From assembly GCA_963701185.1 (NCBI GenBank), contig OY969569.1:795548-859547 (forward strand): 64,000 bases of DNA. The letters run 5' to 3'. The notes under the pieces are model-generated. The model ran no database searches. It was not told the origin of the DNA and saw nothing but the letters and a program-made list of their open reading frames with translations. Position 1 is the first letter of the stretch, and each line of letters begins with the position of its first letter. The position numbers and the translations under genes were made by a program. The DNA is from Candidatus Gottesmanbacteria bacterium. GTDB taxonomy: Bacteria > Patescibacteriota > Microgenomatia > UBA10105 > UBA927. Of this stretch, positions 5,015 to 56,933 are shown piece after piece.

Positions 5015-5026
5015 TTGTCATTCCCG

Positions 5027-6421: not shown

Positions 6422-6428
6422 AGAATCC

Positions 6429-27527: not shown

Positions 27528-27550
27528 CGAACAAAACAAATGTGTTTACT

Positions 27551-27570
27551 ATGTGGACAAGTTATCCACA
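27551..27570. promoter_or_regulatory. DnaA boxes immediately upstream of dnaA
   Basis: 'TGTGGACAA' (one mismatch to TGTGGATAA) and a perfect 'TTATCCACA' at 27562-27570, two nucleotides before the dnaA ATG. Confidence 0.6.
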
Positions 27571-27571
27571 T

Positions 27572-28948: not shown

Positions 28949-28956
28949 TAAGAAAG

Positions 28957-29136
28957 TTATCAACTTATCCACCGCTACCAACTATTTATCCACTTTGTTA
29001 TCCACACGATCTCCACAGATAAAACGATTGTTTTGAGTCGTTGACACGAGACGTTAAAAAGCATACACTTTTCCACGCCGTTTTCTATTACTACTACTAT
29101 TGGATTATATAGAAGAAAAACAAAAACAAACCCTGT
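28957..29136. promoter_or_regulatory. oriC-like DnaA-box cluster plus AT-rich region between dnaA and dnaN
   Basis: TTATCCACC (28965-28973), TTATCCACT (28987-28995), TTATCCACA (28998-29006), TCCACAGAT (29012-29020), followed by AT-rich sequence up to dnaN. Confidence 0.6.
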
Positions 29137-31229: not shown

Positions 31230-31230
31230 A

Positions 31231-33273: not shown

Positions 33274-33277
33274 AGCC

Positions 33278-35176: not shown

Positions 35177-35180
35177 AGGT

Positions 35181-35840
35181 TTAGGTTCCCACCGCCTTTT
35201 CGATATTTTCAGCGCTCACAATCGGCGCGCCCTGGTTATAGATTTCGTAAAACAGCCGCACGAGCCGCTCATTGGTTAATTGTTTTGCCGAGAGACCTAT
35301 GCGGTTGCAAAGCCGTATGATTTGGTCCCCTTTGGGGGTAAGGACAATTATGGCCCGTTCGAAAATATAGGGCCTCGGGTACGGGAGGCCCCGCCTTTTG
35401 GACCCGCCAAGAAGCACGTTGGCGCTTGCCCCCAGCTCCAGATATGAAAACGGTACGACAATATAAAACTTTTTATCCAGCACATCTTTCTCCTTGACGG
35501 TGGCCGCCACAAACAGGCGGTATCCGTGCATGGCAGCGGCAAGCTTCGGATTTTTTTGCGTTTTTTCCCTGTCCTCCAGCGTCCGGAGGTATGCCGTCAC
35601 GTCTTTGTGTTGGGTGCGGATCAAAATTTCAATCGGGAAGGAGAGCGAATTTAACAGACCCGCGTACGCGTAAATAATTGCATCCTGTTCCTTTTCGGAT
35701 AGCAATCCGAAATTAACCGCGGTCGCGGATATAACCATGGAGCAGGAGCCGTCGGCGTACATGACCAGACCATGGTCAATGGTTTCTATTTCCGTGAATA
35801 GCTGTGTTGAGGATCTGATGGGTACGATTGGGTCAGGCAT
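35181..35840 (-). CDS. hypothetical T4SS-operon protein
   Basis: ORF 35181..36053 trimmed to Met72 (MPDPIVPIRS) so it does not overlap the upstream gene ending at 35851. Located between the PrgI-like and VirB4 genes. Confidence 0.4.
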   Translation of the reverse strand: MPDPIVPIRSSTQLFTEIETIDHGLVMYADGSCSMVISATAVNFGLLSEKEQDAIIYAYAGLLNSLSFPIEILIRTQHKDVTAYLRTLEDREKTQKNPKLAAAMHGYRLFVAATVKEKDVLDKKFYIVVPFSYLELGASANVLLGGSKRRGLPYPRPYIFERAIIVLTPKGDQIIRLCNRIGLSAKQLTNERLVRLFYEIYNQGAPIVSAENIEKAVGT

Positions 35841-35850
35841 ATGGGTATAA

Positions 35851-37044
35851 CTATGTCGGTGCCCCGAACAATTCCTTCTCAAGCTTTGCCCGCGTGATTT
35901 CTTTTTCGGTTTTTGCAAAAATCTCAAGCGCCGGTACGATCGACCCGTTGAGGGTGATCTGGGCGCGGTCAAAGGTAAAGCGAAGCCGGGGGTCTTCCGT
36001 TTCCACAAAATAGATGCCGTTGGGAAGCTGGGTGGACGCCGCAAACTGGCCAAGGCGGTTGGTTTTGAGGGCCCGCAGCGGCATGCCGTCTTTGTCTTTT
36101 ACTGTTACCAGGACGCCGGGCAGCAAATTTTTGTCTTTGTCTTTGACGATTCCGGTGACGATGTTGGGAAATGTCGTGAGGCGTGGTAATCCCACTTTTG
36201 CCGCGCGTCCGGGACCTATGACCTGAATGGTGGGCATCTTCGCCTGCCCGGCGGGTGTTTGCGTAACGGTAGTAGTGGGAGGGTTATATTCAGGAGGGCT
36301 TTGAAGCGAACGGAGTTTGGCGAGTTCCGCCATCATCTTTTCCTGTTCGGCCAAGAGCTCGGTTAGCTGGGCCTGCAGTTCCGCGACACGCGATTCCGCC
36401 GCGGTTTTACTCTCCAATTCCGAGGTGAGTTTTTTGAGTTTGTCTTCCAGGGCTGATTCTTTTTGCTGGGTCTCTGTAAGCTCTTTTGAAACATTTGGTG
36501 CGGGTCTTACAATAGGCGGCGGAGAAAGGTCCATGTGCGGCACCGGCGCCGTCTTGGGTTTGGGCGCCCACAAATCGGCAAGCCGATCAGCGATGCCCTT
36601 TTTGGGAGCAGATACAGTTACGACGCCGGCAGTAGTAGCCGGCGGCGAAGGAACAAAAATATTCTGCAAAATATCTCCCTTTCGGGTTGGGGGAGATGCC
36701 GGGGCGGTTTGTGTTTTTTCCGGCACTGCGGGCCGGGGATTCTCGGTTTTTGGCCGGCTCCAGACATACTGCGTTGGGTTATAAATACTCTTGATAAACG
36801 AAAGGACCCATACATCCATAGGGCGTTCCTCAATCGGCACAAACGCGAGCCCGAATCCGGCAACCGCACTGGTGACCGCCAGCGGCAGGGTAATGAAAAA
36901 CGGCAAGGGCAGCTTGTACATGATGTAGGCTCCAATCGCTCCTCCGACCAAATACCCGAATTGTTTGAGGGTCATGTCGCCGATGAGGCGGAATTGAAAT
37001 GTCGTAACGTTTTGCGGGACAGGATGTTGTTCCATATATAACAA
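35851..37044 (-). CDS. PrgI/VirB3-like T4SS membrane protein with an extended Pro-rich/coiled-coil C-terminal region
   Basis: N-terminal 'FQFRLIGDMTLKQFGYLVGGAIGAYIMYKLPLPFFITLPLAVTSAVAGFGLAFVPIEERPMDVWV' is a PrgI-like two-TM module. Pro/Ala-rich linker, coiled coil, then a C-terminal globular part. Confidence 0.5.
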   Translation of the reverse strand: MLYMEQHPVPQNVTTFQFRLIGDMTLKQFGYLVGGAIGAYIMYKLPLPFFITLPLAVTSAVAGFGLAFVPIEERPMDVWVLSFIKSIYNPTQYVWSRPKTENPRPAVPEKTQTAPASPPTRKGDILQNIFVPSPPATTAGVVTVSAPKKGIADRLADLWAPKPKTAPVPHMDLSPPPIVRPAPNVSKELTETQQKESALEDKLKKLTSELESKTAAESRVAELQAQLTELLAEQEKMMAELAKLRSLQSPPEYNPPTTTVTQTPAGQAKMPTIQVIGPGRAAKVGLPRLTTFPNIVTGIVKDKDKNLLPGVLVTVKDKDGMPLRALKTNRLGQFAASTQLPNGIYFVETEDPRLRFTFDRAQITLNGSIVPALEIFAKTEKEITRAKLEKELFGAPT

Positions 37045-44457: not shown

Positions 44458-44763
44458 TTAATTGCCGGGGATCGTAAATTGCGTGACATTGACGCCGGTA
44501 AACAACTGGATGGTGCGTAAGATAAGATACGCAATGACGATAACGACAACGCCGGTGATAGCTGCCGTCAGCGTGCCGCGGGCTTTCTCGAGTTTTTTTT
44601 GGTCCCCGCCGGAGAATAAAAAACCGTACCCGCCGATTATGAACATGATAAATAATGCAACGCCTATGAGTGCGGTAAGCGCCTGCACGACACCCGTAAA
44701 TATCGGTTCAAAACATTGAAGTGTCGCTGCGCCCCCAATCGTACAGTTCTGCCAGGTCCACAT
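44458..44763 (-). CDS. VirB2/TrbC-like T4SS pilin paralogue 1
   Basis: TM1, then 'GGYGFLFSGGDQKKLEKARGTLTAAITGVVVIV', then TM2. Same architecture as the other paralogues. Confidence 0.6.
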   Translation of the reverse strand: MWTWQNCTIGGAATLQCFEPIFTGVVQALTALIGVALFIMFIIGGYGFLFSGGDQKKLEKARGTLTAAITGVVVIVIAYLILRTIQLFTGVNVTQFTIPGN

Positions 44764-44814
44764 ATGGAATCATTATCGCGCAGATGGCGGCAACAGGCAA
44801 GAGGGTGTCGCGCT

Positions 44815-45147
44815 TTAATTAAAAGGCTTTGGGAACGTGAGCGTCCCGCCGATAATCGATATGCCCAGGAAATTCTGGACGAGAATCATAATCGCCCACG
44901 CGGCTCCGACAATGATAAGTCCGACAATCGCATGGGTAATTTTATTGCGCGCAGCTTCCATGCCGGCTTTGTCTCCGCCGGAGGTGATCCATTGGATGCC
45001 GCCCATGATAAGGAAAAAGAATGCCAGGAGTGCCGCAACGATAAGAAGCACGCCGACGAGCGCACTGATGAGCTGACCGATATCACCGATTTTTATGTTC
45101 GCGGGTTGCGGGATTGTAATCTGTGCCTGTGCAAATACCTTTTCCAT
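44815..45147 (-). CDS. VirB2/TrbC-like T4SS pilin paralogue 2
   Basis: 'LIMGGIQWITSGGDKAGMEAARNKITHAIVGLIIVGAAWAI' is the core motif GG.QW.(T/S).GGD...A..I..AI.GL.I. Confidence 0.65.
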   Translation of the reverse strand: MEKVFAQAQITIPQPANIKIGDIGQLISALVGVLLIVAALLAFFFLIMGGIQWITSGGDKAGMEAARNKITHAIVGLIIVGAAWAIMILVQNFLGISIIGGTLTFPKPFN

Positions 45148-45222
45148 AATTCCTCCTTATTAACGACCGTGTTTTATTATATCCTTATTCTCATTGTTGC
45201 GCAACTATCTTTCGCTTGTCAA

Positions 45223-45579
45223 CTATTGATTAATGCTCGGGATGGTAAGTTTTGTGATCTCTATGCCGAAAAATTGTCCGACGAGCGTCATGAGCGCATA
45301 GGCTGCCGCCACGATCACCAGCCCCATAATGGCGTTGGTAATACCGCTGCGCGCTTTCTCCAGCGCCTGCTTGTCTCCGCCTGCAGTGATCCATTGGATG
45401 CCGCCGATAAGAAGCAGCATAAACGTGAGTAAGAATCCCGCGATAAACAGTGCGCCGACCAAATTACTGATGAGCTTTCCCAGCGACGCGCCGCCCTGAG
45501 AAACATCGGGGTTTGGTCCGCCTCCGAGAGACGGGGGTAAAACGGGGTTTCGGATCTGAGATAATATTCGTGTATTCAT
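45223..45579 (-). CDS. VirB2/TrbC-like T4SS pilin paralogue 3
   Basis: 'LLIGGIQWITAGGDKQALEKARSGITNAIMGLVIVAAAYAL'. Confidence 0.65.
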   Translation of the reverse strand: MNTRILSQIRNPVLPPSLGGGPNPDVSQGGASLGKLISNLVGALFIAGFLLTFMLLLIGGIQWITAGGDKQALEKARSGITNAIMGLVIVAAAYALMTLVGQFFGIEITKLTIPSINQ

Positions 45580-45581
45580 TT

Positions 45582-45974
45582 TTACTGAATTTTTAATTGC
45601 TGAATAATGACTCCGGGATTGCCGACAAGAATATCATATCCGAAGAATTGACCGACGACCGCGATCATGATCCAGGCGGCAATGATGATGACGAGCCCGA
45701 AAAATCCGTTCATAATCCGCTGCCGGGCCGTTGTAAGCTTTTTTGTGTCTCCGGCGCTGGAAATCCATTCATAGCCGCCAAACAGGAGCTGGAACATAAA
45801 CCAAATACTGCCGGCTATCGTCAGAAATCCGACGATGGAGGATATGACTCCGGTTACCTTGGTCAGCGCCAGTACGCCGCCTGCCTGACCACCGAAATTT
45901 AGCGCCCCAAACGGCCCCAAGCCGGATCCTCCGATGTTTCCAAGCCCCTGTCCTGTTTGTGCAAGTAGCGCCAT
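45582..45974 (-). CDS. VirB2/TrbC-like T4SS pilin paralogue 4
   Basis: Gly-rich N-terminus, then 'LLFGGYEWISSAGDTKKLTTARQRIMNGFFGLVIIIAAWIMIAV'. Confidence 0.6.
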   Translation of the reverse strand: MALLAQTGQGLGNIGGSGLGPFGALNFGGQAGGVLALTKVTGVISSIVGFLTIAGSIWFMFQLLFGGYEWISSAGDTKKLTTARQRIMNGFFGLVIIIAAWIMIAVVGQFFGYDILVGNPGVIIQQLKIQ

Positions 45975-45977
45975 AGA

Positions 45978-46352
45978 TTATGGTGTGTAAATCTTCGGAT
46001 TTAAGATATACCCCGCATCGCCGAACAATAAGTATCCGAATAGTGCGGCGAGGGCGAATGAGCTGACCACAAGAATGAGTCCCAAGAGCGACTGCCAGAT
46101 TTTTCCCCATGCCTTTTGCACGACTTTTGAGTCTCCTCCGGCGCCCATAAATTGGAATCCGGCGAGAATAAGATTGATGAATGCAAACAATCCGGCGACC
46201 ACAAAGACCAGCCGGAGAATGTTTGTGAGAAAGAGGATGAGTCCGCCGCCCTGTGCGGCAGTTATGCCCCGGTATGCTTTCGGGAGCGGATTGTCAACCG
46301 TCCCGACGATGCTTGATGCGCCCTGTGCAAATATTTTTTCCATGCCAAACAT
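45978..46352 (-). CDS. VirB2/TrbC-like T4SS pilin paralogue 5
   Basis: 'LILAGFQFMGAGGDSKVVQKAWGKIWQSLLGLILVVSSFALAAL'. Confidence 0.6.
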   Translation of the reverse strand: MFGMEKIFAQGASSIVGTVDNPLPKAYRGITAAQGGGLILFLTNILRLVFVVAGLFAFINLILAGFQFMGAGGDSKVVQKAWGKIWQSLLGLILVVSSFALAALFGYLLFGDAGYILNPKIYTP

Positions 46353-46354
46353 AA

Positions 46355-46711
46355 TTATTTCAGACCGACCATCTGTTTTAATATGTCAGCGCCCGTGATG
46401 GTGGCGATGACCTGGACGATAAGAACTGATAAGACGACGATCAAAAGCCCGATGACCGCCCCGGTTACCGCCCTTTTGCTCTGTTCGAGTTGTTTGGCGT
46501 CCTCGGATCCTGCTCCCACTATAACGCCCAGTCCCCCTAAAATCAATAAAACAAAGCTGATAACCCCGGCCAGTACGACGGCATTTTTGACAATCACGGA
46601 TACGATTGAGCCGAAGTCGCTAAATGTCGCGGCGGGCGCGAATATGGTTTTGATGTCGACAGCGTACACCATTCTCAGATCATTGTATGGGTAAATGGAG
46701 GTTACTGTCAA
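46355..46711 (-). CDS. VirB2/TrbC-like T4SS pilin paralogue 6
   Basis: 'LLILGGLGVIVGAGSEDAKQLEQSKRAVTGAVIGLLIVVLSVLIVQV'. Confidence 0.6.
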   Translation of the reverse strand: MTVTSIYPYNDLRMVYAVDIKTIFAPAATFSDFGSIVSVIVKNAVVLAGVISFVLLILGGLGVIVGAGSEDAKQLEQSKRAVTGAVIGLLIVVLSVLIVQVIATITGADILKQMVGLK

Positions 46712-47273
46712 TTTATGGTATAGTTATCGGGTTGTGGACGACGCAAACATTATTCCTAAGATTCTTGCGCGCGACCGGAGGGCACTGCTTATTTTTTACC
46801 GCAGGTACGCGCCGAAACTCTCCCGCTTCATTGCCGGAAAGATCGGAAATCCGGGCGATGCGGAAGAGGTTCTGCAGGACACGCTCTATGCATTCTTGGA
46901 GGCCATCCGCGATTTTCAGGGAAAAAGCAATATTCAGACGTTTTTGTTTTCCATTTGCCAGCACAAAGTGATTGATTATTACCGGAGAAAGAAGCTCAAG
47001 CACGCAGTGTTTTCCCAGATGCCGCAGCTTGAGGCGATTATCTCGCCTCTTATCAGTCCCGAAGACCAGCTGGATGCCGTTTTAGTGAAAGAGAAAATTC
47101 ACGCCGTGTTGGGGCGACTCCTCCCGCGTCATAGGCAAATTTTGCAGCTGAAATATCTTGACGGGTTATCCGTAGAAGAAATCGCAAAACGCCTGGCGAT
47201 GACATTTAAGAGTGTCGAGTCCCAGCTTTTCCGCGCCAGGAAAGCCTTTGTCGAGCATTTTATATCTATTTAG
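46695..47273 (+). CDS. RNA polymerase sigma factor, ECF (sigma-70 group 4) family
   Basis: Region 2 'DAEEVLQDTLYAFLEAIRDFQGKSNIQTFLFSICQHKVIDYYRRK'. Region 4 HTH 'LKYLDGLSVEEIAKRLAMTFKSVESQLFRARKAF'. Divergent to the pilin array. Confidence 0.75.
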   Translation: MEVTVNLWYSYRVVDDANIIPKILARDRRALLIFYRRYAPKLSRFIAGKIGNPGDAEEVLQDTLYAFLEAIRDFQGKSNIQTFLFSICQHKVIDYYRRKKLKHAVFSQMPQLEAIISPLISPEDQLDAVLVKEKIHAVLGRLLPRHRQILQLKYLDGLSVEEIAKRLAMTFKSVESQLFRARKAFVEHFISI

Positions 47274-47275
47274 GT

Positions 47276-47313
47276 GTCATTCCCGCGAAGGCGGGAATCG
47301 GTACTGGTATTTG
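47276..47313. repeat. GC-rich hairpin repeat copy 3, directly after the sigma factor stop codon
   Basis: 'GTCATTCCCGCGAAGGCGGGAATCGGTACTGGTATTTG' begins 3 nt after the TAG. Confidence 0.7.
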
Positions 47314-47616: not shown

Positions 47617-48234
47617 ATGGAGACATCGCTTATTGTCGCGCTTGTTGATTTTAGCAGAAATATTATAGGATTAATTATCCGTCCGTATGAAACGTGCCGC
47701 AGGATCGTGGAAAAAGAAAACCCGTTGGAACTGATTTATGTTGCGGTAGTGCTTGCCGTATATTTTGTCCTCGCGTCTTTGGTTAAGGTTGCCAGCTTCC
47801 GTCCGTTTCTTCTGACCCGGCAGTTTTTTGTGTTGGCGGGTGCGGTAGCTATTACGTATTGTTTTGTCGTGACGGTATTCTGGGTGGTAGGGAGATTGGT
47901 GGGCGCAGGCGGGAAAATGAAAGGCCTTGCGGTCCTCTGGGGGTATTCGCTGCTGCCTACGACACTCTGGTTTTTCGTCACATCTCTCCTCTATGTTTTG
48001 TTGCCTCCGCCGCGGACCACAAGCATTCAGGGGATTCTTTTCAGCGTATTCTTCCTCGTGTTTTCCATTACGCTGTTTTTGTGGAAGGCAACGATTACCT
48101 ATTTGTCTCTCCGCTTCGGACTCAAGGTGGATTTAGGAAAAATTTTGGTTATTTTGGCGATATCACTTCCGGTTCTTGCGTTATACAGTTACGGCATGTA
48201 TAGACTCGGAATCTTTAAAATACCGTTTATATGA
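47617..48234 (+). CDS. polytopic membrane protein (Yip1-like topology)
   Basis: 205 aa with five predicted TM helices. Stop overlaps the HMGR start (ATGA). Confidence 0.4.
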   Translation: METSLIVALVDFSRNIIGLIIRPYETCRRIVEKENPLELIYVAVVLAVYFVLASLVKVASFRPFLLTRQFFVLAGAVAITYCFVVTVFWVVGRLVGAGGKMKGLAVLWGYSLLPTTLWFFVTSLLYVLLPPPRTTSIQGILFSVFFLVFSITLFLWKATITYLSLRFGLKVDLGKILVILAISLPVLALYSYGMYRLGIFKIPFI

Positions 48235-49370
48235 ACCTACGTGATTACACAAGCGTTTTGGAACGAAGGAAAGCGATTGAGAAAGAACGGAACGTTGATC
48301 TTACGCATATCGGTGCCTTCACGCTGGATGAGACTGTTGCCGTCACACGAAACTGCGAAAACATGATTGGCGCAGTACAGATTCCGATGGGAATTGCCGG
48401 GCCGCTTCGCATTGCCAAAAAAGAATATTATCTGCCGCTTGCGACCACGGAAGGTGCGCTCGTGGCGTCCGTGAACCGCGGATGCAGGGCAATAACCGAA
48501 TCAGGAGGGGCATTTGTCCGAAGTAAACGCGTGGGTGCTACGCGCGGGCCTGTATTTCGTGTTGAGTCTATGCGGGACCAAGTAGTTTTCAGTGATTTTC
48601 TTAAAAAGAATTTTAAGGATTTGAAAAATATTGCTCAGTCAACATCAGGTCACATAACGCTTCTCAGTGCTCATTCACGGGCCGTTGGAAGATATCGCTA
48701 CGTACGTTTTGTTTTTGACACACAGGACGCCATGGGCATGAACATGGCAACAATCGCGGCGCAAAAACTTGTTGCGTTTATTGAATTAAAAACCACGGCC
48801 CGCTGCGTTTCCGTGGCAGGGAATTATGACATAGACAAAAAACCCGCCTGGGTGAATGTTATTGAAGGCCGCGGTACAAAAGCATGGGCGGAAGTGACAA
48901 TTTCCGACAGAATTTTAAGGAGAATATTGAAAACCACCGCGCAAAAAATATATGATGTGTGGCTTGCAAAATGTATGATCGGGTCTGCCATGAGCGGCTC
49001 GATGGGATTCAATGCTCAGTATGCAAATGTAATCGCTGCACTTTTTATTGCTACAGGCCAGGATCCCGCACATGTTGTTGAGGGAAGTTTGGGGATAACA
49101 ACGGTGGAGGTTATTGACGGAAAAAATCTATACATGAGCGTCTATCTTCCTGATTTGATGGTCGGGACTGTCGGAGGAGGAACCGGACTTGCGACACAAC
49201 GGGAAGCGCTATCGATGATTGGCGCAAAAACGAGTCAAGAGTTTTCGGAAATTATCGCCGGAGCAGTGCTGGCGGGGGAGATTTCGTTACTCGCATCATT
49301 AAGCGAAGGAACGTTAGCACGGGCACACCAAAAATTGGCGCGCGGAAAAGTATTAAGTACTAAATACTAA
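48231..49370 (+). CDS. hmgA: hydroxymethylglutaryl-CoA reductase (class I-like)
   Basis: 'DAMGMNMATIAAQK' is a class I signature. 'AGNYDIDKKPAWVNVIEGRGTKAWAEV' and 'IGTVGGGTGLATQ'. Confidence 0.8.
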   Translation: MNLRDYTSVLERRKAIEKERNVDLTHIGAFTLDETVAVTRNCENMIGAVQIPMGIAGPLRIAKKEYYLPLATTEGALVASVNRGCRAITESGGAFVRSKRVGATRGPVFRVESMRDQVVFSDFLKKNFKDLKNIAQSTSGHITLLSAHSRAVGRYRYVRFVFDTQDAMGMNMATIAAQKLVAFIELKTTARCVSVAGNYDIDKKPAWVNVIEGRGTKAWAEVTISDRILRRILKTTAQKIYDVWLAKCMIGSAMSGSMGFNAQYANVIAALFIATGQDPAHVVEGSLGITTVEVIDGKNLYMSVYLPDLMVGTVGGGTGLATQREALSMIGAKTSQEFSEIIAGAVLAGEISLLASLSEGTLARAHQKLARGKVLSTKY

Positions 49371-49405
49371 GTATTAATTAAAACTTAGCACTTAGAATTT
49401 AAACT

Positions 49406-50455
49406 ATGGTCGGCATTGTTAGTTACGGAACATACATACCGCAGTATCGGATTAAGCTGGCCGATATCGCCGCGGCGTGGAAAAAAGATCCGCAGGAAGT
49501 CGTCGGGTCGCTCGGGATTGAAGAGAAATCGGTTCCGGGGACTGATGAGGATGCCGTATCGATAGCGCTGGAAGCGGCATGGAATAGCCTGTCGGCATTC
49601 AACGGAAAACCGGCGGACATAGAAGCACTCTTCGTCGGGAGCGAAAGCCATCCGTATGCTGTGAACCCGACATCAACGATTGTCGGAGAGTTATTGGGAG
49701 CCGGACATAACTATTTGGCAGCGGATTTGGAATTTGCCTGCAAGGCCGCAACGGCGGGCGTGCAGGCGGCTGCCGGACTTATCAGCGCGGGACACGCGCG
49801 TTATGGTTTAGTCATCGGAGCGGATACTGCCCAAAGCAAGCCGCATGATGCCCTGGAGTATACCTCGGCGGCGGCAGGGGCCGCATATCTGCTGTCGGGA
49901 GAGAAGCAAGAGATTGTTGCTAAACTTCTGGCTTATACCTCGTATTCTTCCGATACGCCGGATTTCTGGAGACGGGACGGCATCCGGTATCCCTCCCACG
50001 CAGGGCGATTTACCGGCGAACCCGCATATTTTGCCCACGTACTTGGCGCGGCAGCCAGACTCTTTGCCCAGTGTCATATGAAACCGGAGGATTTTGATTA
50101 TTGCGTATTCCATATGCCCAACGGCAAGTTCCCGCGCGACGCGGCGCGCCGTCTGGGATTTAGTAAAGAGCAATTGTCAACGTCTCTTATCGTTGATTAT
50201 ATCGGCAATCCGTACTCCGCCTCTGCCATGCTCGGCCTTGCGGCGGTCCTGGATATTGCACGGCCGGGTGAAAAAATATGTATGGTGTCGTATGGCTCCG
50301 GCGCGGGCTCGGATGCGTTTGTATGGGAAACGACGCCGCTCTTGCCGCGCATGCAGAAGATCCGCGGAAAGCAGCAGAGCTTGGTAACCCAGCAGATAGT
50401 AAAAAAACAGTATGTGGATTACGTCGGCTATTTGAAGCAGACACACAAGATTTAA
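49406..50455 (+). CDS. hydroxymethylglutaryl-CoA synthase, archaeal-type (thiolase-fold condensing enzyme)
   Basis: 'MVGIVSYGTYIPQYRIKLADIAAAW', catalytic Cys context 'LEFACKAATAG'. About 350 aa. Co-located with a thiolase and a DUF35 protein, as in the archaeal HMGS/thiolase/DUF35 complex. Confidence 0.75.
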   Translation: MVGIVSYGTYIPQYRIKLADIAAAWKKDPQEVVGSLGIEEKSVPGTDEDAVSIALEAAWNSLSAFNGKPADIEALFVGSESHPYAVNPTSTIVGELLGAGHNYLAADLEFACKAATAGVQAAAGLISAGHARYGLVIGADTAQSKPHDALEYTSAAAGAAYLLSGEKQEIVAKLLAYTSYSSDTPDFWRRDGIRYPSHAGRFTGEPAYFAHVLGAAARLFAQCHMKPEDFDYCVFHMPNGKFPRDAARRLGFSKEQLSTSLIVDYIGNPYSASAMLGLAAVLDIARPGEKICMVSYGSGAGSDAFVWETTPLLPRMQKIRGKQQSLVTQQIVKKQYVDYVGYLKQTHKI

Positions 50456-50512
50456 TTTGAAAATTAAGAAAATAAAAATTGATTAAAAATTGAAAATTTT
50501 AAATTAAAAATT

Positions 50513-51658
50513 ATGAAAGTGTATATAACCGGCGCAGCAACGACAAAATTCGGTGAATTGTGGGCAACGTCCCCCAGGAGCCTTGCGCGCACGGCAGCGT
50601 TCGGCGCACTGAAAGACGCGGGGATTGGCGTCCGTCGCATCCAGGCGGTATTCGTCGGCAATATGTTGTCCGGCATCTTGGGCGGGCAGGAGCATTTGGG
50701 CGCATTTTTTGCGGAAGAATTAGGAATAAGCGTACCGGCATTTAAAATTGAAGGCGCGTGTGCATCCGGCGGTCTTGCGCTTCATAACGCAGTCAACAGT
50801 GTTTTGTCGGGTCAGTACGATACTGTGGTTGTTCTGGGTGTAGAGAAAATGACGGATCACAAGCCGGAAGATGTCGCCACAGCCCTCATGGGTGCGGGAT
50901 CGGAAGAAGAACGTGCGGCCGGTGCGACATTTCCGGGCTTGTACGCCATACTTGCGCGTGCCCATATGAGGGCATATGGGACGACACAGGAACAGCTCGC
51001 CGCAGTTGCCGTCAAAAATCACTATCATGCATCGCTCAACCCCAATGCGCAGTTTCATACCACACTTACGATTGAACAGGTTATACGAAGTTCGCGGATT
51101 GCCGACCCCTTACGGCTTTTGGATTGCTCGCCCATTTCAGACGGAGCTTCAGCACTTGTTATCACGAGTAAAAAATCAGGAGTTCAGATAGCCGCCTCGA
51201 CGGTCGCGACGGATACGTTGGGATTGGCACAGAGGAAAAGTCTTACAGAGCTGGCCGCGACGAAAGAGGCGGGTAAAAAGGCATATAAACATGCAGGCAT
51301 GACACCGAAGGATGTTGATGTTGCGGAGGTTCATGATTGTTTTACCATTGCCGAAATATTTGCGATGGAAGACCTCGGATTTTTTTCGAGGGGAAAGGCT
51401 GCTGTTGCAATTGCGGCCGGAGAAACAAGACTTGAAACATCACGCCATCTCGTCGTTAATCCTTCGGGCGGACTCAAAGGGTGCGGGCATCCGGTGGGGG
51501 CAACCGGCGTGAAGCAAATTGTGGAACTGGTCGATCAACTGCGCGGCCGCGCCACAGCGCGGCAGGTAAAAGGAGCAACAATTGGTTTAGCACATAATGT
51601 CGGCGGCAGCGGGGCAACAGCGGTTGTGCATATACTTAAAAAATTAATGTATGAATAG
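50513..51658 (+). CDS. acetyl-CoA C-acetyltransferase (archaeal-type thiolase)
   Basis: Active-site Cys 'IEGACASGGLALHNAV'. C-terminal 'GHPVGATGVKQIVELVDQLRG' and 'GLAHNVGGSGATAVVHIL'. Confidence 0.8.
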   Translation: MKVYITGAATTKFGELWATSPRSLARTAAFGALKDAGIGVRRIQAVFVGNMLSGILGGQEHLGAFFAEELGISVPAFKIEGACASGGLALHNAVNSVLSGQYDTVVVLGVEKMTDHKPEDVATALMGAGSEEERAAGATFPGLYAILARAHMRAYGTTQEQLAAVAVKNHYHASLNPNAQFHTTLTIEQVIRSSRIADPLRLLDCSPISDGASALVITSKKSGVQIAASTVATDTLGLAQRKSLTELAATKEAGKKAYKHAGMTPKDVDVAEVHDCFTIAEIFAMEDLGFFSRGKAAVAIAAGETRLETSRHLVVNPSGGLKGCGHPVGATGVKQIVELVDQLRGRATARQVKGATIGLAHNVGGSGATAVVHILKKLMYE

Positions 51659-51950
51659 TCCGGTTAAAATTTGGAGAAACCAAAAACATATAGCCAATCT
51701 GCTTGGCCGCGAGGGAACGATCGTTTCCTGGACCGTTGTCCGCGTGCCGCCCGCCGGATTTTCCAATCTTGCGCCGTATCCCGTCGTGGTTGTTGATCTT
51801 GCAGGAGGAGGGAGAATTACCGCTCAACTCGTGGATTGGAACGAAGCAGATCTCACAGAAGGACGACGGGTAAAAGTAGTCATCCGGCGCATCTGTGAAC
51901 CCACAACTGAGGGCATTATTCCGTATGGGATTAAGGTGAAACCCGTCTAG
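51651..51950 (+). CDS. DUF35 OB-fold protein (scaffold of the thiolase/HMGS complex)
   Basis: 99 aa. 'GTIVSWTVVRVPPAGFSNLAPYPVVVVDLAGGGRITAQLVD' is OB-fold DUF35-like. Overlaps the thiolase stop. Confidence 0.6.
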   Translation: MNSPVKIWRNQKHIANLLGREGTIVSWTVVRVPPAGFSNLAPYPVVVVDLAGGGRITAQLVDWNEADLTEGRRVKVVIRRICEPTTEGIIPYGIKVKPV

Positions 51951-51959
51951 GAATTCTAT

Positions 51960-52848
51960 ATGAAAATTTCAGTATCTGTTCCCGGGAAAATTATTCTGAT
52001 GGGTGATCATGCGGTCGTGCATGGAAAGCCTGGGCTTATTGCTGCAGTCAACCGCAGGCTTACCGTACAGGTTTCATGCAGGAAAAGGCACACACAAGGA
52101 ATATATCTCACACATTCTCGGGATTATACAAAATCATTTTCAGCTTTCGATACCGCCTGCATTTACGGATAACAATTACGTCAGATATCCCCGAGGGATA
52201 TCACTTGGGTTCATCTGCTGCGGTTGCAGTAGCAACTATTGGGGCCGCCATCGTATTTTTTGAAAAAAATATGGAATCCGACTGCTATAAATCAACTTGC
52301 GTATGAGGCGGAAAAAATACACACATAAGATCCGTCAGGAGGTGACAATACGGCGGTGACATTCGGAGGATTTATATGGTACAGAAAGGAACTGGAATTT
52401 TCAAAAGTATTTGGCAGTTGCCGCTGAAGTTTCCGCGGCGATTAATCATTTTTCTCTCATTGATACCGGTCGGCCCAAAGAGAAATACGGGAGAGATGGT
52501 TGCGTACGTTGAGGAAACTCAATACACAATACAATGCAAGAAGTTTTTGACACAAATGAAGTACAGACAAAAAGAATTGCGGTGGCATTAAAAGAGGGAG
52601 ATGAAAAGACATTTATTGATGCGATGCGAAAAGGCGAACGGACTCTGGAGGCAATCGGCGTAGTCAGTCCGAAAGTGATTCCCATAATCCGTGCGGTTGA
52701 GAAATCCGGTGGAGCAGCAAAAATATTAGGTGGCGGGGGACGCGCCAACGGCGTGGGGTATCTGTTATGTTATTCCCATAACCCTCCAGAAGGAGCAATG
52801 CCAATCACACTTGGTGAAGAAGGGGTTCGTTTGGAGAAAAAAATATGA
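51960..52848 (+). pseudogene. GHMP-kinase (mevalonate kinase-like) gene disrupted by several frameshifts and an in-frame TAA
   Basis: Conserved pieces lie in different frames. 'PGKIILMGDHAVVHG' is in frame 0. 'ITSDIPEGYHLGSSAAVAVA' is in frame 2. 'LAYEAEKIHT*DPSGGDNTAVTFGGFIWY' is in frame 0 with an in-frame TAA. 'LIDTGRPKEK' and the C-terminal 'ILGGGGRANGVGYLLCY' are in frame 1. The total span of about 890 nt equals one GHMP kinase. Confidence 0.6.
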
Positions 52849-54191
52849 GAACAAGCGCACCGGGAAAACTCATGTTGCTTGGCGAACATGCCGTCGTGTA
52901 CGGGTATCCGTGCATTGTGACGGCCATTTCCCAAAGGCTTTATGTGAAGGAAGGAAATTCCACCGGTGATACGCGATTTTTGGATGCAGCGATAAAATTA
53001 TGGGGAACTAGTAGCACAAAACTTTCTGCAGATTGTTTGTTTTCCGGAAAATATGGGTTCGGATCTTCTTCCGCGGTGACGGTTGCGGCACTCAAAGCTC
53101 TAAAACCCAATGCGCCTAATAAAGACATTTTTGATGCGGCATACAAGATCGTTCTGGATATTCAGGGTGCGGGATCAGGATTTGATGTTGCGGCGGCAAC
53201 TCACGGCGGGACGCTGTATTACGTAAAAAATAAAACAATTGAGCCTTTGGCAATCAGCGATATGCCGCTTATCGTTGGGTATACCGGTATAAAAAGCAGT
53301 ACGATTGATATCGTCAACACGGTAGCCGCCAAAAGGGATGCGTACCCGGAAAAAGTAGACAGGATTTTTCTCGGGATTGCCAAACTCGTGGATCAGGCGA
53401 AGGAAAAAATGCTTACAGGAGATTGGGAGCGTGTCGGCAGACTCATGGATTTTGACCAGGAGTATCTTCGCGATCTTGGGGTAAGTTCGGAGAAACTGGA
53501 GGCATTGATCAAGGCGGCCAAACGTGCAGGAGCTTGGGGCGCCAAGCTGTCTGGGGCGGGCGGCGGAGATTGTATGATTGCCATGGCGCCTCCTGACAGG
53601 CGGCAAGCAGTGGAAGACGCTATAGCGGACGCGGGCGGGGAGGTGGCGCGGGTCACGCCCGACGCAGAAGGGGTGAGGATCGAAACCACGGATAATCAGG
53701 ATGAACTTTTTATTGTTGTCGATCGCGATGATACCATTTTAGGATACAAAACCCGCTATGAATGTCATCATGATAAAACTCTTATACACCGGGTGGTAGG
53801 TGCTTTGATTTTTGATGAAGCCGGCAGAATCTTATTACAAAAGCGCAGTATGACAAAAGATATGGGGCCGGGATTGTGGGGAATATCAGCAGCGGGTCAC
53901 GTGACAAAGGGTCAAACGGATGAGGAAGCTGTGCACCGCGAGCTTCAGGAAGAGTTGGGGGTAGATATACCGTTAACATTCTGGAAAAAATTTATATCGG
54001 AAGAGCCGAGTGAAACAGAACGGGATATGATTTATAAAGGCATGTCAGACGGCCCGTTTCATCCGAACGCGGAAGAGGTCTCCGAGGTACGTTTTTTTGA
54101 AATCCGCGAACTCAAATTTCTGTGTGCAAGTCGGCATATCCGGCTGACTGCAGGAGCAGCAAGAACATTACGCGAGGTGGAAATTTTATGA
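52845..54191 (+). CDS. mevalonate kinase (GHMP kinase) fused to a C-terminal Nudix / IPP-isomerase-type-1-like domain
   Basis: N-terminus 'SAPGKLMLLGEHAVVYG', 'GFGSSSAVTVAALKAL', 'KLSGAGGGDCMIAM' is an intact GHMP kinase. C-terminal ~150 aa 'VVGALIFDEAGRILLQKRSMTKDMGPGLWGISAAGHVTKGQTDEEAVHRELQEELG' is an IDI-1/Nudix fold. Ala replaces the Cys of the canonical IDI 'CCGH' motif. Confidence 0.65.
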   Translation: MRTSAPGKLMLLGEHAVVYGYPCIVTAISQRLYVKEGNSTGDTRFLDAAIKLWGTSSTKLSADCLFSGKYGFGSSSAVTVAALKALKPNAPNKDIFDAAYKIVLDIQGAGSGFDVAAATHGGTLYYVKNKTIEPLAISDMPLIVGYTGIKSSTIDIVNTVAAKRDAYPEKVDRIFLGIAKLVDQAKEKMLTGDWERVGRLMDFDQEYLRDLGVSSEKLEALIKAAKRAGAWGAKLSGAGGGDCMIAMAPPDRRQAVEDAIADAGGEVARVTPDAEGVRIETTDNQDELFIVVDRDDTILGYKTRYECHHDKTLIHRVVGALIFDEAGRILLQKRSMTKDMGPGLWGISAAGHVTKGQTDEEAVHRELQEELGVDIPLTFWKKFISEEPSETERDMIYKGMSDGPFHPNAEEVSEVRFFEIRELKFLCASRHIRLTAGAARTLREVEIL

Positions 54192-55114
54192 AGAAAGCAA
54201 CCGCCATCGCGCCCGCAAACATCGCGTTTATCAAATTTTGGGGTAAAAAAGATGCGGCGTTGCGCCTGCCGTGCAATCCGTCGATTTCCATGAATTTATC
54301 ATCTTGTACGACGACGACGATAGTAGAATTCTCGCCTGATTTTGAAAAAGACACAGTGTCAGAAGGTTTCGACGAAAAAAGAATACTCGATCACGTTGAC
54401 CGTTTACGGAAAATCGCAGAATCGGAAGAAAAAGTAACGGTGATAACGGAAAATAATTTTCCGAAATCAGCGGGTATTGCCTCGTCCGCGTCGGGTTTTG
54501 CAGCGCTTACCGTGGCCGCCGCCGCCGCGTTGGGTTTAAAACTTTCGGAAAAGGAGTTGTCAAGTCTTGCCCGTTTGGGATCAGGATCCGCAAGCCGCAG
54601 TATTCCCGATGGTTTTGTAAAATGGGATGGCGAATTTGCCCGATCTCTCTACCCGCCGGACTGGTGGGACCTGCGGGATATTATCGTCATTGTACAAAGT
54701 CGGGTCAAGGATGTGCCCACATCGATCGGTCATGAAAACGTGCAAACAAGTCCGTTTTTCAAAAAAAGACTGGAAGCGTTGCCCCGTCGGATTACGCGAT
54801 TAGAAAAGGCACTGAAAGAAAAAAACCTTACGATGTTTGGAGAAATACTCGAAGAAGAGTGCCTGGATATGCATCATGTCATGCAGACACAGACGCCGCC
54901 GTTATTTTATTGGAACGATGATACAAAACGGGTAATGAAGAAATTGAAAATGAGCGGAATACCGGCCTATTTCACTATTGATGCCGGACCCAATGTACAC
55001 GTCATGTGTGAAGCAAAAGATGAAAGAAAAGTAACGCAACTTTTTAAAAATTGGAAAATGATCGTCAATAAACCGTCAGATGGCGCCCATATAGTCAATA
55101 CACACTTATTTTAG
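54188..55114 (+). CDS. mvaD: diphosphomevalonate (or phosphomevalonate) decarboxylase
   Basis: 'APANIAFIKFWGK', 'ITENNFPKSAGIASSASGFAALTVAAA', 'GSGSASRS'. ATGA overlap with the upstream gene. ORF trimmed to MKKATAIAP. Confidence 0.8.
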   Translation: MKKATAIAPANIAFIKFWGKKDAALRLPCNPSISMNLSSCTTTTIVEFSPDFEKDTVSEGFDEKRILDHVDRLRKIAESEEKVTVITENNFPKSAGIASSASGFAALTVAAAAALGLKLSEKELSSLARLGSGSASRSIPDGFVKWDGEFARSLYPPDWWDLRDIIVIVQSRVKDVPTSIGHENVQTSPFFKKRLEALPRRITRLEKALKEKNLTMFGEILEEECLDMHHVMQTQTPPLFYWNDDTKRVMKKLKMSGIPAYFTIDAGPNVHVMCEAKDERKVTQLFKNWKMIVNKPSDGAHIVNTHLF

Positions 55115-55139
55115 TATGGTAATATGCTAATATGCTAAT

Positions 55140-55820
55140 ATGACACAACAGCAAAATATACCGACACATATTGCCATCATCATGGACGGAAACCGGCGGT
55201 GGGCTGGTGAACATAAGCTTCCGATTTTGGAAGGGCATCGCAGGGTCGCCAATGTCGTCTTGGAACGCCTTGTTGAACATGCGGCAAAACGCGGGATTGC
55301 ATACATAACATTCTGGGCATTCTCGACGGAGAATTGGAATCGGGCAAAAGATGAAGTAAAAGGAATCATGCAGATTTTATCCCAGGGCATCGGATATTTC
55401 GGGAAGCGTATGTTTGAAAAAGGAGTGAAACTGCAGATGATCGGTGACCTGTCGCGTCTTGACCCGAAACTGCAAAAAAGTATTCTGCAGGTAGTAGAAA
55501 ACACAAAAGAAAATAAAAGAATTACATTGATTATCGCATTAAATTACGGAGGGCGGGACGAAATAATACGCGCAATGCAGAAAGTGAACGGGGAAATATC
55601 AGAAAAAGAATTTTCTCAACTTCTTGATACCGTTGGCATTCCCGATCCGGATTTACTCATACGGACGGGCGGGGAACAGCGGTTAAGCGGATTTTTACCG
55701 TGGCAAAGCGTCTACAGCGAACTGTATTTTCCGCCGTGGTACATGCCGGATTTTACCCCCCGTAGGTTGGACGAGGCGATTGAGGAATTTGCGCGCCGTC
55801 AGCGCCGGTTTGGTCGTTGA
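55140..55820 (+). CDS. uppS: isoprenyl transferase (undecaprenyl-diphosphate synthase family)
   Basis: 'HIAIIMDGNRRWA', 'GHRRG', 'ITFWAFSTENWNR', 'RTGGEQRLSGFLPWQSVYSELYF'. Confidence 0.85.
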   Translation: MTQQQNIPTHIAIIMDGNRRWAGEHKLPILEGHRRVANVVLERLVEHAAKRGIAYITFWAFSTENWNRAKDEVKGIMQILSQGIGYFGKRMFEKGVKLQMIGDLSRLDPKLQKSILQVVENTKENKRITLIIALNYGGRDEIIRAMQKVNGEISEKEFSQLLDTVGIPDPDLLIRTGGEQRLSGFLPWQSVYSELYFPPWYMPDFTPRRLDEAIEEFARRQRRFGR

Positions 55821-55823
55821 TGT

Positions 55824-55857
55824 GTCATCCTCGCGAAAGCGAGGATCTGCCTTTTTC
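55824..55857 (+). terminator. intrinsic terminator after uppS (hairpin variant of the repeat family)
   Basis: 'GTCATCCTCGCGAAAGCGAGGATCTGCCTTTTTCG'. Stem ATCCTCGC/GCGAGGAT, loop GAAA, followed by a T-run. Same architecture as the CCCGC/GCGGG repeat but with compensatory changes. Confidence 0.65.
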
Positions 55858-55863
55858 GAAAAA

Positions 55864-55900
55864 CAACACCAAAACCGATTCCCGCCTTCGCGGGAATGAC
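55864..55900. repeat. GC-rich hairpin repeat copy 4 (inverted orientation)
   Basis: The reverse complement is 'GTCATTCCCGCGAAGGCGGGAATCGGTTTTGGTGTTG', one mismatch from copy 1. Lies between convergent uppS and the pilin gene. Confidence 0.7.
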
Positions 55901-55911
55901 AAAATGAGAAA

Positions 55912-56253
55912 TTATTTAAAAACGCTGGTAATAGACTCAAGCCCGAAGATGGCGCCCACGAGCTGGACAATCCAGTATGCGGCAAATACGATAAAAAATC
56001 CCACAATTGCGTTCGTCAGACGGGATTTTCCCTGTTCCATTTTTTTTGCATCGCCCGCACTGGTGAGAAACGTGTAGCCTGCGGAAATAAGCATCAGCAG
56101 TAACCCCAGCCCCGCAAACGCCAGTACCAACGGAACCGCAGCAGAGAGAATGTTCCCGATGGTAGGATTGGATCCGTATAATGGCATATTGAGCGGTCCT
56201 TTAATAGAGCTTCCGTCAGGCAGTGTTAAATTTTGTGCTAAAAGAGTGTACAT
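55912..56253 (-). CDS. VirB2/TrbC-like T4SS pilin paralogue 7
   Basis: 'LLMLISAGYTFLTSAGDAKKMEQGKSRLTNAIVGFFIVFAAYWIVQL'. Confidence 0.6.
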   Translation of the reverse strand: MYTLLAQNLTLPDGSSIKGPLNMPLYGSNPTIGNILSAAVPLVLAFAGLGLLLMLISAGYTFLTSAGDAKKMEQGKSRLTNAIVGFFIVFAAYWIVQLVGAIFGLESITSVFK

Positions 56254-56258
56254 AAAAG

Positions 56259-56933
56259 TTATTGAAATCCAGGAATACCAAGAATACTTACTCCGATTAG
56301 CCGCAATATAAATATGGAAAAGATAATAATGAGCAGCCCCGTGATGGCGCTGGTGACCAATTCTTTACCGGCATTGAGCTGCTCCGGGTTTCCGGCGCTC
56401 ATGAGTATTTGGAACCCGCCGAAGAGAATGAGGAGGAAGGCGATCCCGCCGCCGATGCCGATGCCGATCCGAAGTATATCTCCGATAAATTTCTGCGGGT
56501 CAGTCTGGATGCACCCGATCGCCGTCCATGCCGCCGTCCCTTTCCCCATACACGTTTCGCACGCCGATTTTTTATCGCCCGCAAAATCGCATATTTTGTT
56601 TGATGTGGATGTTGTGTTACTCGCGATGCATTTTTGCGTTGTTGCACAAATACCGGCTGATACAGTCACGGAATTCCCGCTACAACAGGATTGGAGTAAC
56701 GTTTTGCACTGATTATCTTCGATACAAATTGATCCGCCAACGGTGCCGCATTTTTGCGTTGTTGCACAAATACCGGCTGATACAGTCACGGAATTCCCGC
56801 TACAACAGGATTGGAGTAACGTTTTGCACTGATTATCTTCGATACATGCTGCCGACGCAGGCGTATCCAACAAACCAAATAATGTTGTTATGAAAACGAA
56901 GAATAAGACGGTTAGAATAACCTTTTTGACCAT
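56259..56933 (-). CDS. pilin-like protein with an N-terminal tandem Cys-rich module (VirB2-like C-terminal domain; paralogue 8 / putative minor pilin or adhesin)
   Basis: Signal peptide, then two perfect copies of 'CIEDNQCKTLLQSCCSGNSVTVSAGICATTQKC', then a C-terminal 'LILFGGFQILMSAGNPEQLNAGKELVTSAITGLLIIIFSIFIL' pilin core. Confidence 0.55.
   Translation of the reverse strand: MVKKVILTVLFFVFITTLFGLLDTPASAACIEDNQCKTLLQSCCSGNSVTVSAGICATTQKCGTVGGSICIEDNQCKTLLQSCCSGNSVTVSAGICATTQKCIASNTTSTSNKICDFAGDKKSACETCMGKGTAAWTAIGCIQTDPQKFIGDILRIGIGIGGGIAFLLILFGGFQILMSAGNPEQLNAGKELVTSAITGLLIIIFSIFILRLIGVSILGIPGFQ
56629..56846. repeat. perfect 2 x 120-nt tandem repeat inside the Cys-rich pilin-like gene
   Basis: 98 nt at 56629..56726 are identical to 56749..56846. 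The two Cys-rich modules are therefore identical. Confidence 0.85.

Follow-up and report, generated by a model that had tools for sequence, protein, structure and literature searches.

The stretch of DNA analysed here (the window, 64,000 nucleotides; GenBank assembly GCA_963701185.1, contig OY969569.1, positions 795,548 to 859,547 of the forward strand) carries a mevalonate operon of the Microgenomates type from a Candidatus Gottesmanbacteria genome. Its genes lie on the plus strand in the order sigma factor, Yip1-domain protein, HMG-CoA reductase (HMGR), HMG-CoA synthase (HMGS), thiolase, DUF35 protein, K1, K2::Nudix, MVD and UppS, where K1 and K2 are kinases of the GHMP family, MVD is a diphosphomevalonate decarboxylase homologue and UppS is an undecaprenyl-diphosphate synthase. 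K1 (51960..52848) is probably a pseudogene of a second mevalonate kinase (MVK)-like enzyme, while K2 (52845..54191, 448 residues; PF00288, PF08544 and PF00293) is a fusion of a kinase domain (residues 1-282, 52845..53690) to a C-terminal Nudix domain of 166 residues (53691..54191; PF00293, 73 bits vs 21, the second figure here and below being the cut-off of the model). This Nudix domain, which we call type B, resembles type 1 isopentenyl diphosphate isomerase (IDI-1), lacks the catalytic Cys of that enzyme, and is probably not the isomerase of the pathway. A scan of one genome per species recovered 80 related loci (numbered from L001; database proteins are numbered in the manner of P0362) from Gottesman-, Roizman-, Davies- and Woesebacteria, in which the order HMGR-HMGS-thiolase-DUF35-K1-K2-MVD-UppS is shared.

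The gene identities and coordinates proposed in an earlier note, which had been made from the letters of the window alone, agree with the open reading frames (ORFs) and with family scans. The operon is preceded by an ECF-type sigma-70 factor gene (46695..47273, an ORF whose orthologous position in L001-L003 and L085/L087 has Sigma70_r2/r4), a conserved synteny, and by a gene for a Yip1-domain membrane protein (47617..48234; PF04893, 37 bits), a position that is likewise occupied in L001-L003; the stop of the latter gene overlaps the start of HMGR. HMGR (48231..49370; PF00368, 404 bits) is class I-like, scoring 408 vs 442 with the NADPH-type model TIGR00533 and merely 80 with the class II model TIGR00532. 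The trio of archaeal-type proteins recognised in the earlier note is confirmed by HMGS (49406..50455; NF003274, 473 vs 244 bits; TIGR00748, 438 vs 353), acetoacetyl-CoA thiolase (50513..51658; NF004720, 466 vs 420 bits, with matches to PF22691 and PF00108 as well) and the 99-residue DUF35 OB-fold protein (51651..51950; PF01796, 67 bits vs 27, over residues 18-79 only). The DUF35 proteins of the closest loci have 92-106 residues, and there is no Cys in the sequences read (window and L085), so that a zinc ribbon is absent. Downstream of the fusion, MVD (54188..55114; TIGR01240, 249 vs 171 bits) begins at an ATG that overlaps the TGA of the fusion gene. MVD scores 138 vs 475 with the phosphomevalonate decarboxylase model NF040704 and about 32 with the M3K and MBD models, and on these scores it is of the diphosphomevalonate-decarboxylase type. 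The last gene, UppS (55140..55820; TIGR00055, 224 vs 110 bits), encodes a cis-prenyltransferase, and the product of the operon feeds undecaprenyl-phosphate synthesis. A terminator-like hairpin with a T run (55827-55846) and a 23-nt palindromic repeat (55877-55899) follow it, together spanning 55827..55899.

The fusion is not confined to this genome. The top 120 database proteins from a homologue search with the fusion protein proved to be fused too, and those of named source came from Candidatus Gottesmanbacteria, Microgenomates or Patescibacteria. Across 81 distinct loci, the type-B domain is fused to K2 in 30 and encoded by a separate gene between K2 and MVD in nine; another IDI-like gene lies at some other place in five loci, and 37 loci have none within ±6 kb. 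No description of an MVK-Nudix or MVK-IDI fusion came from the literature searches, and the fusion is apparently a lineage-wide variant that has not been described before.

The earlier note had reported both the kinase::Nudix fusion and the replacement of the catalytic Cys by Ala, and both are real. The motif ISAAGH occupies residues 347-352 of the fusion, and its second Ala (Ala350) aligns with Cys67 of E. coli IDI; the IDI motif, given in that note as CCGH, takes the forms C-G-H-P or C-C-S-H-P. The replacement is not a peculiarity of this genome: among 119 aligned fused relatives the Cys67 column holds Ala in 85, Gly in 19, Ser in 12, Thr in three and Cys in none, and Cys appears there in four of 185 domains of the wider family. 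Cys67 is needed for catalysis in the characterised type 1 IDIs, and the PDB entries of E. coli IDI with Ala at position 67 are presumably C67A mutants. The five metal ligands of IDI (H25, H32, H69, E114 and E116) all have equivalents in the domain; in the fused relatives H308 is kept in 113/119, H315 and H352 in 119/119, and E390 and E392 in 118/119, and counting also the equivalents of K21, R51 and K55 the range is 113-119 of 119. The Nudix box reads G-x5-Q-x7-RELQEELGV and is complete save that its first Glu is Gln (Q in 84 and E in 32 of 120 aligned relatives). Its R-E-x-x-E-E part is kept in 118-119 of the 119, and E366, the general-base Glu of the hydrolase box, is invariant (119/119). 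Nudix hydrolases, whose full box is G-x5-E-x7-R-E-U-x-E-E-x-G-U, are defined by R-E-U-x-E-E at this place, as opposed to R-R-x-x-[Y/A]-E in IDIs (PMC5389931). The domain also has no equivalent of Trp161, where the canonical IDI-1s of L027, L043 and L063 have P-W.

The domain scores 92 vs 127 with the IDI model NF002995, with which the canonical IDI-1s of L027, L063 and L043 reach 136-146, and 68 vs 106 with the IDI model TIGR02150; despite these sub-cut-off scores, IDI remains its best-scoring sequence model, and the model of the YfcD family (NF011922) gives 68 vs 152. Since Foldseek with the whole fusion returned only kinase matches, the Nudix domain was modelled alone, and the predicted structure (mean confidence score, pLDDT, of 97) matches Nudix structures: YfcD is best (TM 0.82-0.84, rmsd 2.1), followed by IDI (TM 0.74-0.82) and DR0079. 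Whether the domain aligns better with IDI or with another Nudix family, the comparison that the earlier note had proposed, has a divided answer, with the intact hydrolase box, the two missed IDI cut-offs and the structural closeness of YfcD on one side and the best sequence model on the other. One further residue, Cys307, stands immediately before the H25 equivalent, in a short helix with R304 and H308, and is present in all 119 fused proteins. A catalytic Cys moved to this position was considered and kept as a minor possibility only: the helix position is Cys in just 73 of 185 wider-family domains and otherwise Ala or Val, so it is not a family-wide catalytic residue.

Canonical IDI-1 genes are rare in these clusters (three of the 81 loci: L027, L043 and L063). 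In the clusters of L027 and L043 the fusion occurs together with a canonical, Cys-containing IDI-1, the fused domain of L043 being degenerate in that its E116 equivalent is lost; the canonical IDI-1 of L063 is not accompanied by a type-B domain. When 1.8 billion representatives were searched, 1928 relatives were returned at E <= 1e-10, among them proteins (P0362, P0365, P0366 and P0378) in which a canonical IDI-1 domain with CCSH, RR, ExE and PW motifs is fused to a type-B domain. Two of these tandem IDI-1::type-B proteins, P0378 and P0366, lie inside mevalonate clusters (L085 and L089). In L085 (8001-10008) and L086, both from JGI metagenomes, the tandem gene follows DUF35 and a lone K2-type kinase precedes MVD, and in L087, a Beckwithbacteria cluster, the two domains occur in the reverse order with a second Cys-less domain. 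A polyprenyl synthase gene lies upstream of the sigma factor in clusters of the L085/L086 type and in L087. In L062 two different Cys-less IDI-like Nudix genes adjoin one another downstream of MVD (6104-7182, minus strand), an arrangement that mirrors the tandem-domain proteins. All close relatives of the type-B domain whose context was examined are in mevalonate clusters or fused to MVK or IDI-1. Fusions of relatives to GDPD, HAD and GNAT domains occur as well.

On the strength of the hydrolase box, the sub-cut-off IDI scores, the likeness to YfcD and the presence of canonical IDI-1 alongside it, the type-B domain probably constitutes a separate Cys-less subfamily of IDI-like Nudix proteins that is not the isomerase of the pathway. 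Because the domain is repeatedly joined to a true isomerase, it is unlikely to be just another isomerase, and a distinct hydrolytic role is favoured. By analogy with IDI-like hydrolases, the domain may be a prenyl-diphosphate hydrolase, a proposal for which we judge the case to be evenly balanced; it would hydrolyse a C5 prenyl diphosphate, converting isopentenyl diphosphate (IPP) or dimethylallyl diphosphate (DMAPP) to the corresponding monophosphate (IP or DMAP), and would act as a valve or regulator coupled to a kinase of the pathway. Several observations weigh against this proposal. All five metal-ligand equivalents and the diphosphate binders of IDI are kept; the domain sits where the operon would be expected to have its isomerase; canonical IDI-1 is rare in the lineage, and none was found from this genome in a search that was weak and dependent on shared words; and the locus with a degenerate fused domain (L043) has a canonical IDI-1, as does the locus that has no type-B domain (L063), as if one function had been replaced by another.

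The same observations lend themselves to the opposite reading, that the Nudix domain is the IPP:DMAPP isomerase of the operon working without the canonical Cys, with the fusion tying the initial kinase to the final enzyme. Since IPP is the sole product of the mevalonate pathway, and UppS depends on a farnesyl diphosphate primer built from DMAPP, an isomerase is required; with the type-B domain in this role, every step between mevalonate and the pair IPP and DMAPP would be cluster-encoded (here save for the decayed K1). It would account for 39 of the 81 loci having the domain attached to K2 or encoded between K2 and MVD, as against three with canonical IDI-1, for the retention of its metal and diphosphate ligands, for the invariant Cys before the H25 equivalent in the fused proteins, and for the pattern in L043 and L063. 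Moreover, IDI-1 of the L027 kind is rare in the candidate phyla radiation (CPR): the L027 query returned three close relatives followed by Bacteroidota-like IDIs, none of them from the contig of the window or from large Gottesmanbacteria contigs, in a shared-word search that would miss a divergent IDI-1 of the CCSH type. IDI-I has also been counted as universal, and IDI-II as sparse, in CPR (PMC6107057). However, the Cys67 equivalent is never Cys among the fused relatives and the alternative helix Cys is not general in the wider family; the hydrolase-box R-E is conserved where IDIs have R-R; both IDI equivalog cut-offs are missed; and some polypeptides combine the domain with a complete, canonical IDI-1 domain, beside which a second isomerase domain would be redundant. 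We therefore regard the isomerase reading as rather unlikely.

The second unusual feature of the operon is the state of K1. The region 51960-52848 reads as a GHMP kinase only across three frames and has an in-frame TAA at 52326-52328, in line with the description in the earlier note. Relative to its orthologues it has seven frameshifting gaps (lengths not divisible by three), while the other seven genes have none except for one offsetting pair in UppS, which is also present between L001 and L002. K1 is intact in the three closest loci (L001-L003, 291-297 residues, between DUF35 and the fusion) and near full-length in 67 loci of other species, the intact orthologues having 286-390 residues. The stop codon did not come from an insertion or deletion (indel) but from a burst of about ten substitutions within 13 nt, CAT GGG AAT having become ACA TAA GAT within the conserved HGNPSG motif, and in the GEHAVV motif a highly conserved Glu is replaced by Asp (E16D). 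Greedy ORF calling covered 97% of the 64-kb window, and K1 was the sole evident broken gene. An independently assembled Logan contig (L092; ERR10755943, 3227 bp) corresponds to positions 52671-55897 of the window with one mismatch and no gaps, and no intact K1 from the window's own contig of 995,214 bp was present among the best 120 K1 relatives, all of which are at least 60% identical. We infer that the loss of K1 is real and fairly recent; as judged from these alignments K1 is probably a true pseudogene, and its decay is confined to this genome among the species compared, being intact in 67 others.

The competing explanation is that the K1 pseudogene is an artefact of sequencing or assembly in a genome with the ordinary complete Microgenomates pathway. 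The damage consists mostly of 1-bp indels, some of them at short homopolymers (52400 and 52486). After correction of the frameshifts, K1 is 71% identical to K1 of L001, retains a codon-position bias like that of functional genes, and deviates at just one of 38 highly conserved columns (the E16D change). Many 1-bp indels with little excess substitution could also result from long-read consensus errors, and the independent contig ends at 52671, inside K1 and short of every frameshift. Single split genes also occur in other metagenome-assembled loci, in MVD of L019 (7484-8465), K2 of L066 (5868-6817) and the thiolase genes of L035 and L041, and isolated frameshifts therefore do arise in such assemblies. 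These points count against a true pseudogene. Nevertheless, the density of frameshifts in K1 is unmatched in those four loci: seven fall within 0.9 kb and none within the adjoining 6.7 kb, and no other broken gene is evident in 64 kb. The adjoining 3.2 kb is gap-free against the independent assembly, the substitution burst that created the stop is not an indel-type error, the insertion at 52250 lies away from any homopolymer, and a conserved Glu has been replaced. An artefact is accordingly held to be unlikely, with roughly the complement of the confidence placed in a true pseudogene.

Alternatively, the domain fused to K2 might serve as a hydrolase or sensor of other ligands, such as nucleotides, mevalonate diphosphate or long-chain prenyl diphosphates, for example undecaprenyl diphosphate. 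DR0079, one of its close structural neighbours, prefers cytidine di- and triphosphates, to go by a title cited in PMC5158307. The fusions of relatives to GDPD, HAD and GNAT domains, the position of UppS as the last gene of the operon, and the absence of Trp161 and Tyr104 equivalents point in the same direction. In IDI those two residues close the C5 pocket. The restriction of the examined close relatives to mevalonate clusters or to fusions with MVK or IDI-1 and the retention of the IDI diphosphate-binding residues argue against this reading, which appears improbable. A C5 prenyl diphosphate remains our preferred substrate for the domain.

In its kinase domain, K2 scores above the cut-off of the MVK equivalog TIGR00549 (180 vs 163 bits), matches the MVK of Methanosarcina mazei (PDB 6mde) in sequence (E 4e-42) and in Foldseek (E 1.5e-27, TM 0.82), and has the P-G-K, G-E-H-A-V-V and S-x-x-D motifs, whose roles in MVK have been described (PMC6283576). 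By these matches K2 is a mevalonate kinase of the archaeal type. K1, as its orthologues indicate, is a conserved second MVK-like kinase that is intact in other species and disrupted here. For these orthologues the best model is likewise TIGR00549 (149-164 vs 163), and they reach 59-69 vs 166 with the phosphomevalonate kinase (PMK) model TIGR01220 and 36-47 vs 500 with NF040957, TIGR01219 not being passed either. The earlier note had called the degraded gene a decayed kinase paralogue and had asked whether it was the PMK. Given the logic of the pathway and the 'PMVK' of the published cluster (PMC6107057), K1 is plausibly the PMK of the lineage, an orthologue of a second kinase that is intact in 67 species. 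The idea of a decayed duplicate of K2 was rejected, K1 being an old and distinct paralogue: its orthologues share about 25-28% identity with the kinase domain of K2. Against this division of labour stand the failure of K1 with every PMK model (57-69 bits vs 166) together with its scores near the MVK cut-off, and the motifs GSGFD and GAGGGDC of K2, which we take to be typical of phosphomevalonate kinases. The NCBIfam scores do not split K1 and K2 into MVK and PMK, K2 scoring higher on every model, and the motif signals are mixed.

The remainder of the operon appears to be in use. The other seven genes show zero or one deviation each at columns that are at least 95% conserved (38-78 orthologues), and the indel density of K1 (seven in 0.89 kb) would predict about 50 indels in the other 6.7 kb, where none is observed. 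Seven intact genes without frameshifts and with so few deviations are under purifying selection, which indicates that the pathway is still used, and with K1 dead the step from mevalonate-5-phosphate must then be bypassed. The decay of K1 thus implies that the phosphomevalonate-kinase step is circumvented, and this could occur in two ways: K2 would phosphorylate mevalonate-5-phosphate as well, or MVD would decarboxylate mevalonate-5-phosphate and an isopentenyl-phosphate kinase (IPK) encoded elsewhere would complete the route. A precedent for an operon without K1 is provided by the L085/L086 clusters, in which the sole kinase is of the K2 type and K1 is absent from the 17 kb examined. As K2 is kept in a K1-less cluster, it would be the indispensable first kinase and K1 an accessory. 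MVD of the window carries a change, the one unusual residue among the remaining enzymes, at residue 17 (54236-54238), where the Tyr of IKYWGK, present in 79 of 79 other orthologues, is Phe; the change is confirmed in the independent Logan contig and may be related to the loss of K1. This Tyr presumably lines the substrate pocket of bacterial diphosphomevalonate decarboxylases, to go by the structures of the S. epidermidis enzyme. There is no MVD change common to the two K1-less cases (window and L085). None of the 40 larger ORFs (147-1192 residues) scanned in the window beyond the cluster region encodes an IPK, type-2 IDI or polyprenyl synthase. Examination of gap genes and clustering of all unassigned ORFs revealed no evident IPK family in the related clusters either, the unassigned ORFs of these loci being pilins, Yip1 proteins, SpoIID, a sigma factor, methyltransferases and Avd-like proteins. 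That the operon is instead dying, with K1 the first gene lost, the others looking intact for lack of time and precursors coming from another source, would fit the reduced, host-dependent genomes of CPR bacteria and the little excess substitution in K1, from which its inactivation may be recent, but is very improbable given the roughly 50 indels expected under neutrality and not seen, the few deviations at conserved columns, and the maintenance of a K1-less but otherwise intact operon in L085/L086.

As a whole, the explanation that combines loss of K1, bypass of its step and a Nudix domain that is not an isomerase is the best we have, and we put it forward tentatively. A dead K1 in an otherwise conserved operon and the lack of K1 from the cluster of a related lineage suggest that the second kinase is dispensable, which bears on the interconversion of the classical and phosphomevalonate-decarboxylase routes and on engineered shortened pathways. 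Debate on the ancestral isoprenoid pathway has drawn on the mevalonate pathway of CPR bacteria, with 'IDI-I' and 'PMVK' being assigned there by homology alone. Most of the 'IDI-I' copies in these clusters lack the catalytic Cys, have the hydrolase box and in some cases lie beside true IDI-1 domains, and they consequently represent either an undescribed way of isomerising IPP or a hydrolase step, likewise undescribed, that is linked to mevalonate kinase. A more speculative extension, to which we give little weight, is that Microgenomates possess a dedicated Cys-less IDI-like Nudix diphosphatase coupled to MVK or IDI-1, and that the genome studied here in addition runs a pathway without PMK. The substrate of such a diphosphatase would be IPP or DMAPP, or possibly cytoplasmic undecaprenyl diphosphate from the neighbouring UppS, and the genome would represent a natural PMK-less mevalonate pathway caught shifting from the classical route to the isopentenyl phosphate route, which would fit the dead K1, the loss of the MVD Tyr and the K1-less L085/L086 clusters.

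The surroundings of the operon show several further features. The 23-nt palindromic element TCATTCCCGCGAAGGCGGGAATC has four copies in the window (5018-5040, 18711-18733, 47277-47299 and 55877-55899; none expected by chance), of which the last two bracket the operon, and it looks like a member of a family of repetitive extragenic palindromic (REP)-like or terminator hairpins. Arrays of genes for small membrane proteins flank the operon on the minus strand (44458-46711 and 55912-56933). T4SS-pilin-like proteins (PF18895) occupy the same positions in L001-L003 and L085/L087, so that the position is conserved across species. A 224-residue ORF (56259-56933, minus strand) contains an exact internal duplication of the 33-residue Cys-rich module CIEDNQCKTLLQSCCSGNSVTVSAGICATTQKC. 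The region 24846-37044 holds a SecA-like gene, dnaA (27524-28948) and dnaN (29137-30243) beside a set of genes resembling a type IV secretion system (T4SS), with an M23 peptidase, a TraG/VirB4-like ATPase and a PrgI-domain protein, and the window is probably near the replication origin. About 400 bp separate a tRNA-Met gene (1581-1653) from the tyrosine-recombinase/integrase gene downstream of it (2052-2912), a site that may be the edge of an integrated element.

Compared with known systems, the operon as such is not new: as a mevalonate cluster of Microgenomates and other CPR bacteria it has already been described (Hoshino & Gaucher 2018, Mol Biol Evol, PMC6107057). The published cluster likewise contains archaeal-type thiolase and HMGS, class I HMGR, MVK, a second kinase ('PMVK'), a decarboxylase (DPMD) and an 'IDI-I' homologue, in synteny with a cis-prenyltransferase; it differs in that the second kinase is probably a pseudogene in the present genome. 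The word 'fusion' is absent from the text of that paper, in which the MVK::Nudix fusion is apparently not described, and no remark was found there on the missing catalytic Cys of many 'IDI-I' homologues. What is new here is therefore the decay of K1, the lineage-wide fusion and the Cys-less Nudix domain with its hydrolase box.

Two further comparisons concern the pathway. The three adjacent genes for thiolase, HMGS and DUF35 encode the same protein types as the archaeal complex of Methanothermococcus, reportedly described by Vögeli et al. in PNAS in 2018; the DUF35 protein here, at 99 residues, matches only in its OB domain and is missing the N-terminal zinc-ribbon domain. The mevalonate pathway of the haloarchaeal/Chloroflexi type consists of MVK, phosphomevalonate decarboxylase and IPK, and runs without a phosphomevalonate kinase, as this genome would need to do if the loss of K1 is real. 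In contrast to that pathway, the decarboxylase here scores as a diphosphomevalonate decarboxylase (249 vs 171 bits) and not as a phosphomevalonate decarboxylase (138 vs 475), and no IPK is among the 40 larger ORFs scanned in the window.

The Nudix domain can be set beside three kinds of relatives. With the type 1 IDIs, such as E. coli Idi and human IDI1, it has in common the Nudix fold (TM 0.74-0.82) and equivalents of the metal ligands (H25, H32, H69, E114 and E116) and diphosphate binders (K21, R51 and K55), but it differs from them in having Ala, Gly, Ser or Thr for Cys67 across the fused subfamily, no Trp161, a box of the R-E-x-x-E-E rather than the R-R-x-x-[YA]-E form, and scores below the NF002995 and TIGR02150 cut-offs. 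E. coli YfcD (PDB 2fkb) and Deinococcus DR0079 (PDB 2o5f) are IDI-like Nudix hydrolases that also lack the catalytic Cys and are structurally close; YfcD shares the H-R, T-K-D and R-E-x-x-E-E motifs but has G-G where the domain here has G-H (the H69 equivalent) and is separated from it by the model score (68 vs 152), while DR0079 acts on cytidine nucleotides, and we know of no link of either protein to a mevalonate cluster. Plants, for their part, have the IPK/Nudix system of AtNUDX1/3, to which the proposed hydrolytic role would be analogous. In M. mazei, an IDI-1 homologue without catalytic residues is said to be a Nudix hydrolase specific for IPP and DMAPP (reportedly the work of Ishibashi et al. 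in Biosci Biotechnol Biochem, 2022), and the removal of a terminal phosphate by that enzyme is the activity proposed for the domain here. With 49 bits against a cut-off of 300 for the NCBIfam model NF041653 ('Nud_hyd_Meth'), the domain is not an orthologue of the M. mazei enzyme, and unlike it the domain is fused to a mevalonate kinase or, in some relatives, to IDI-1 itself.

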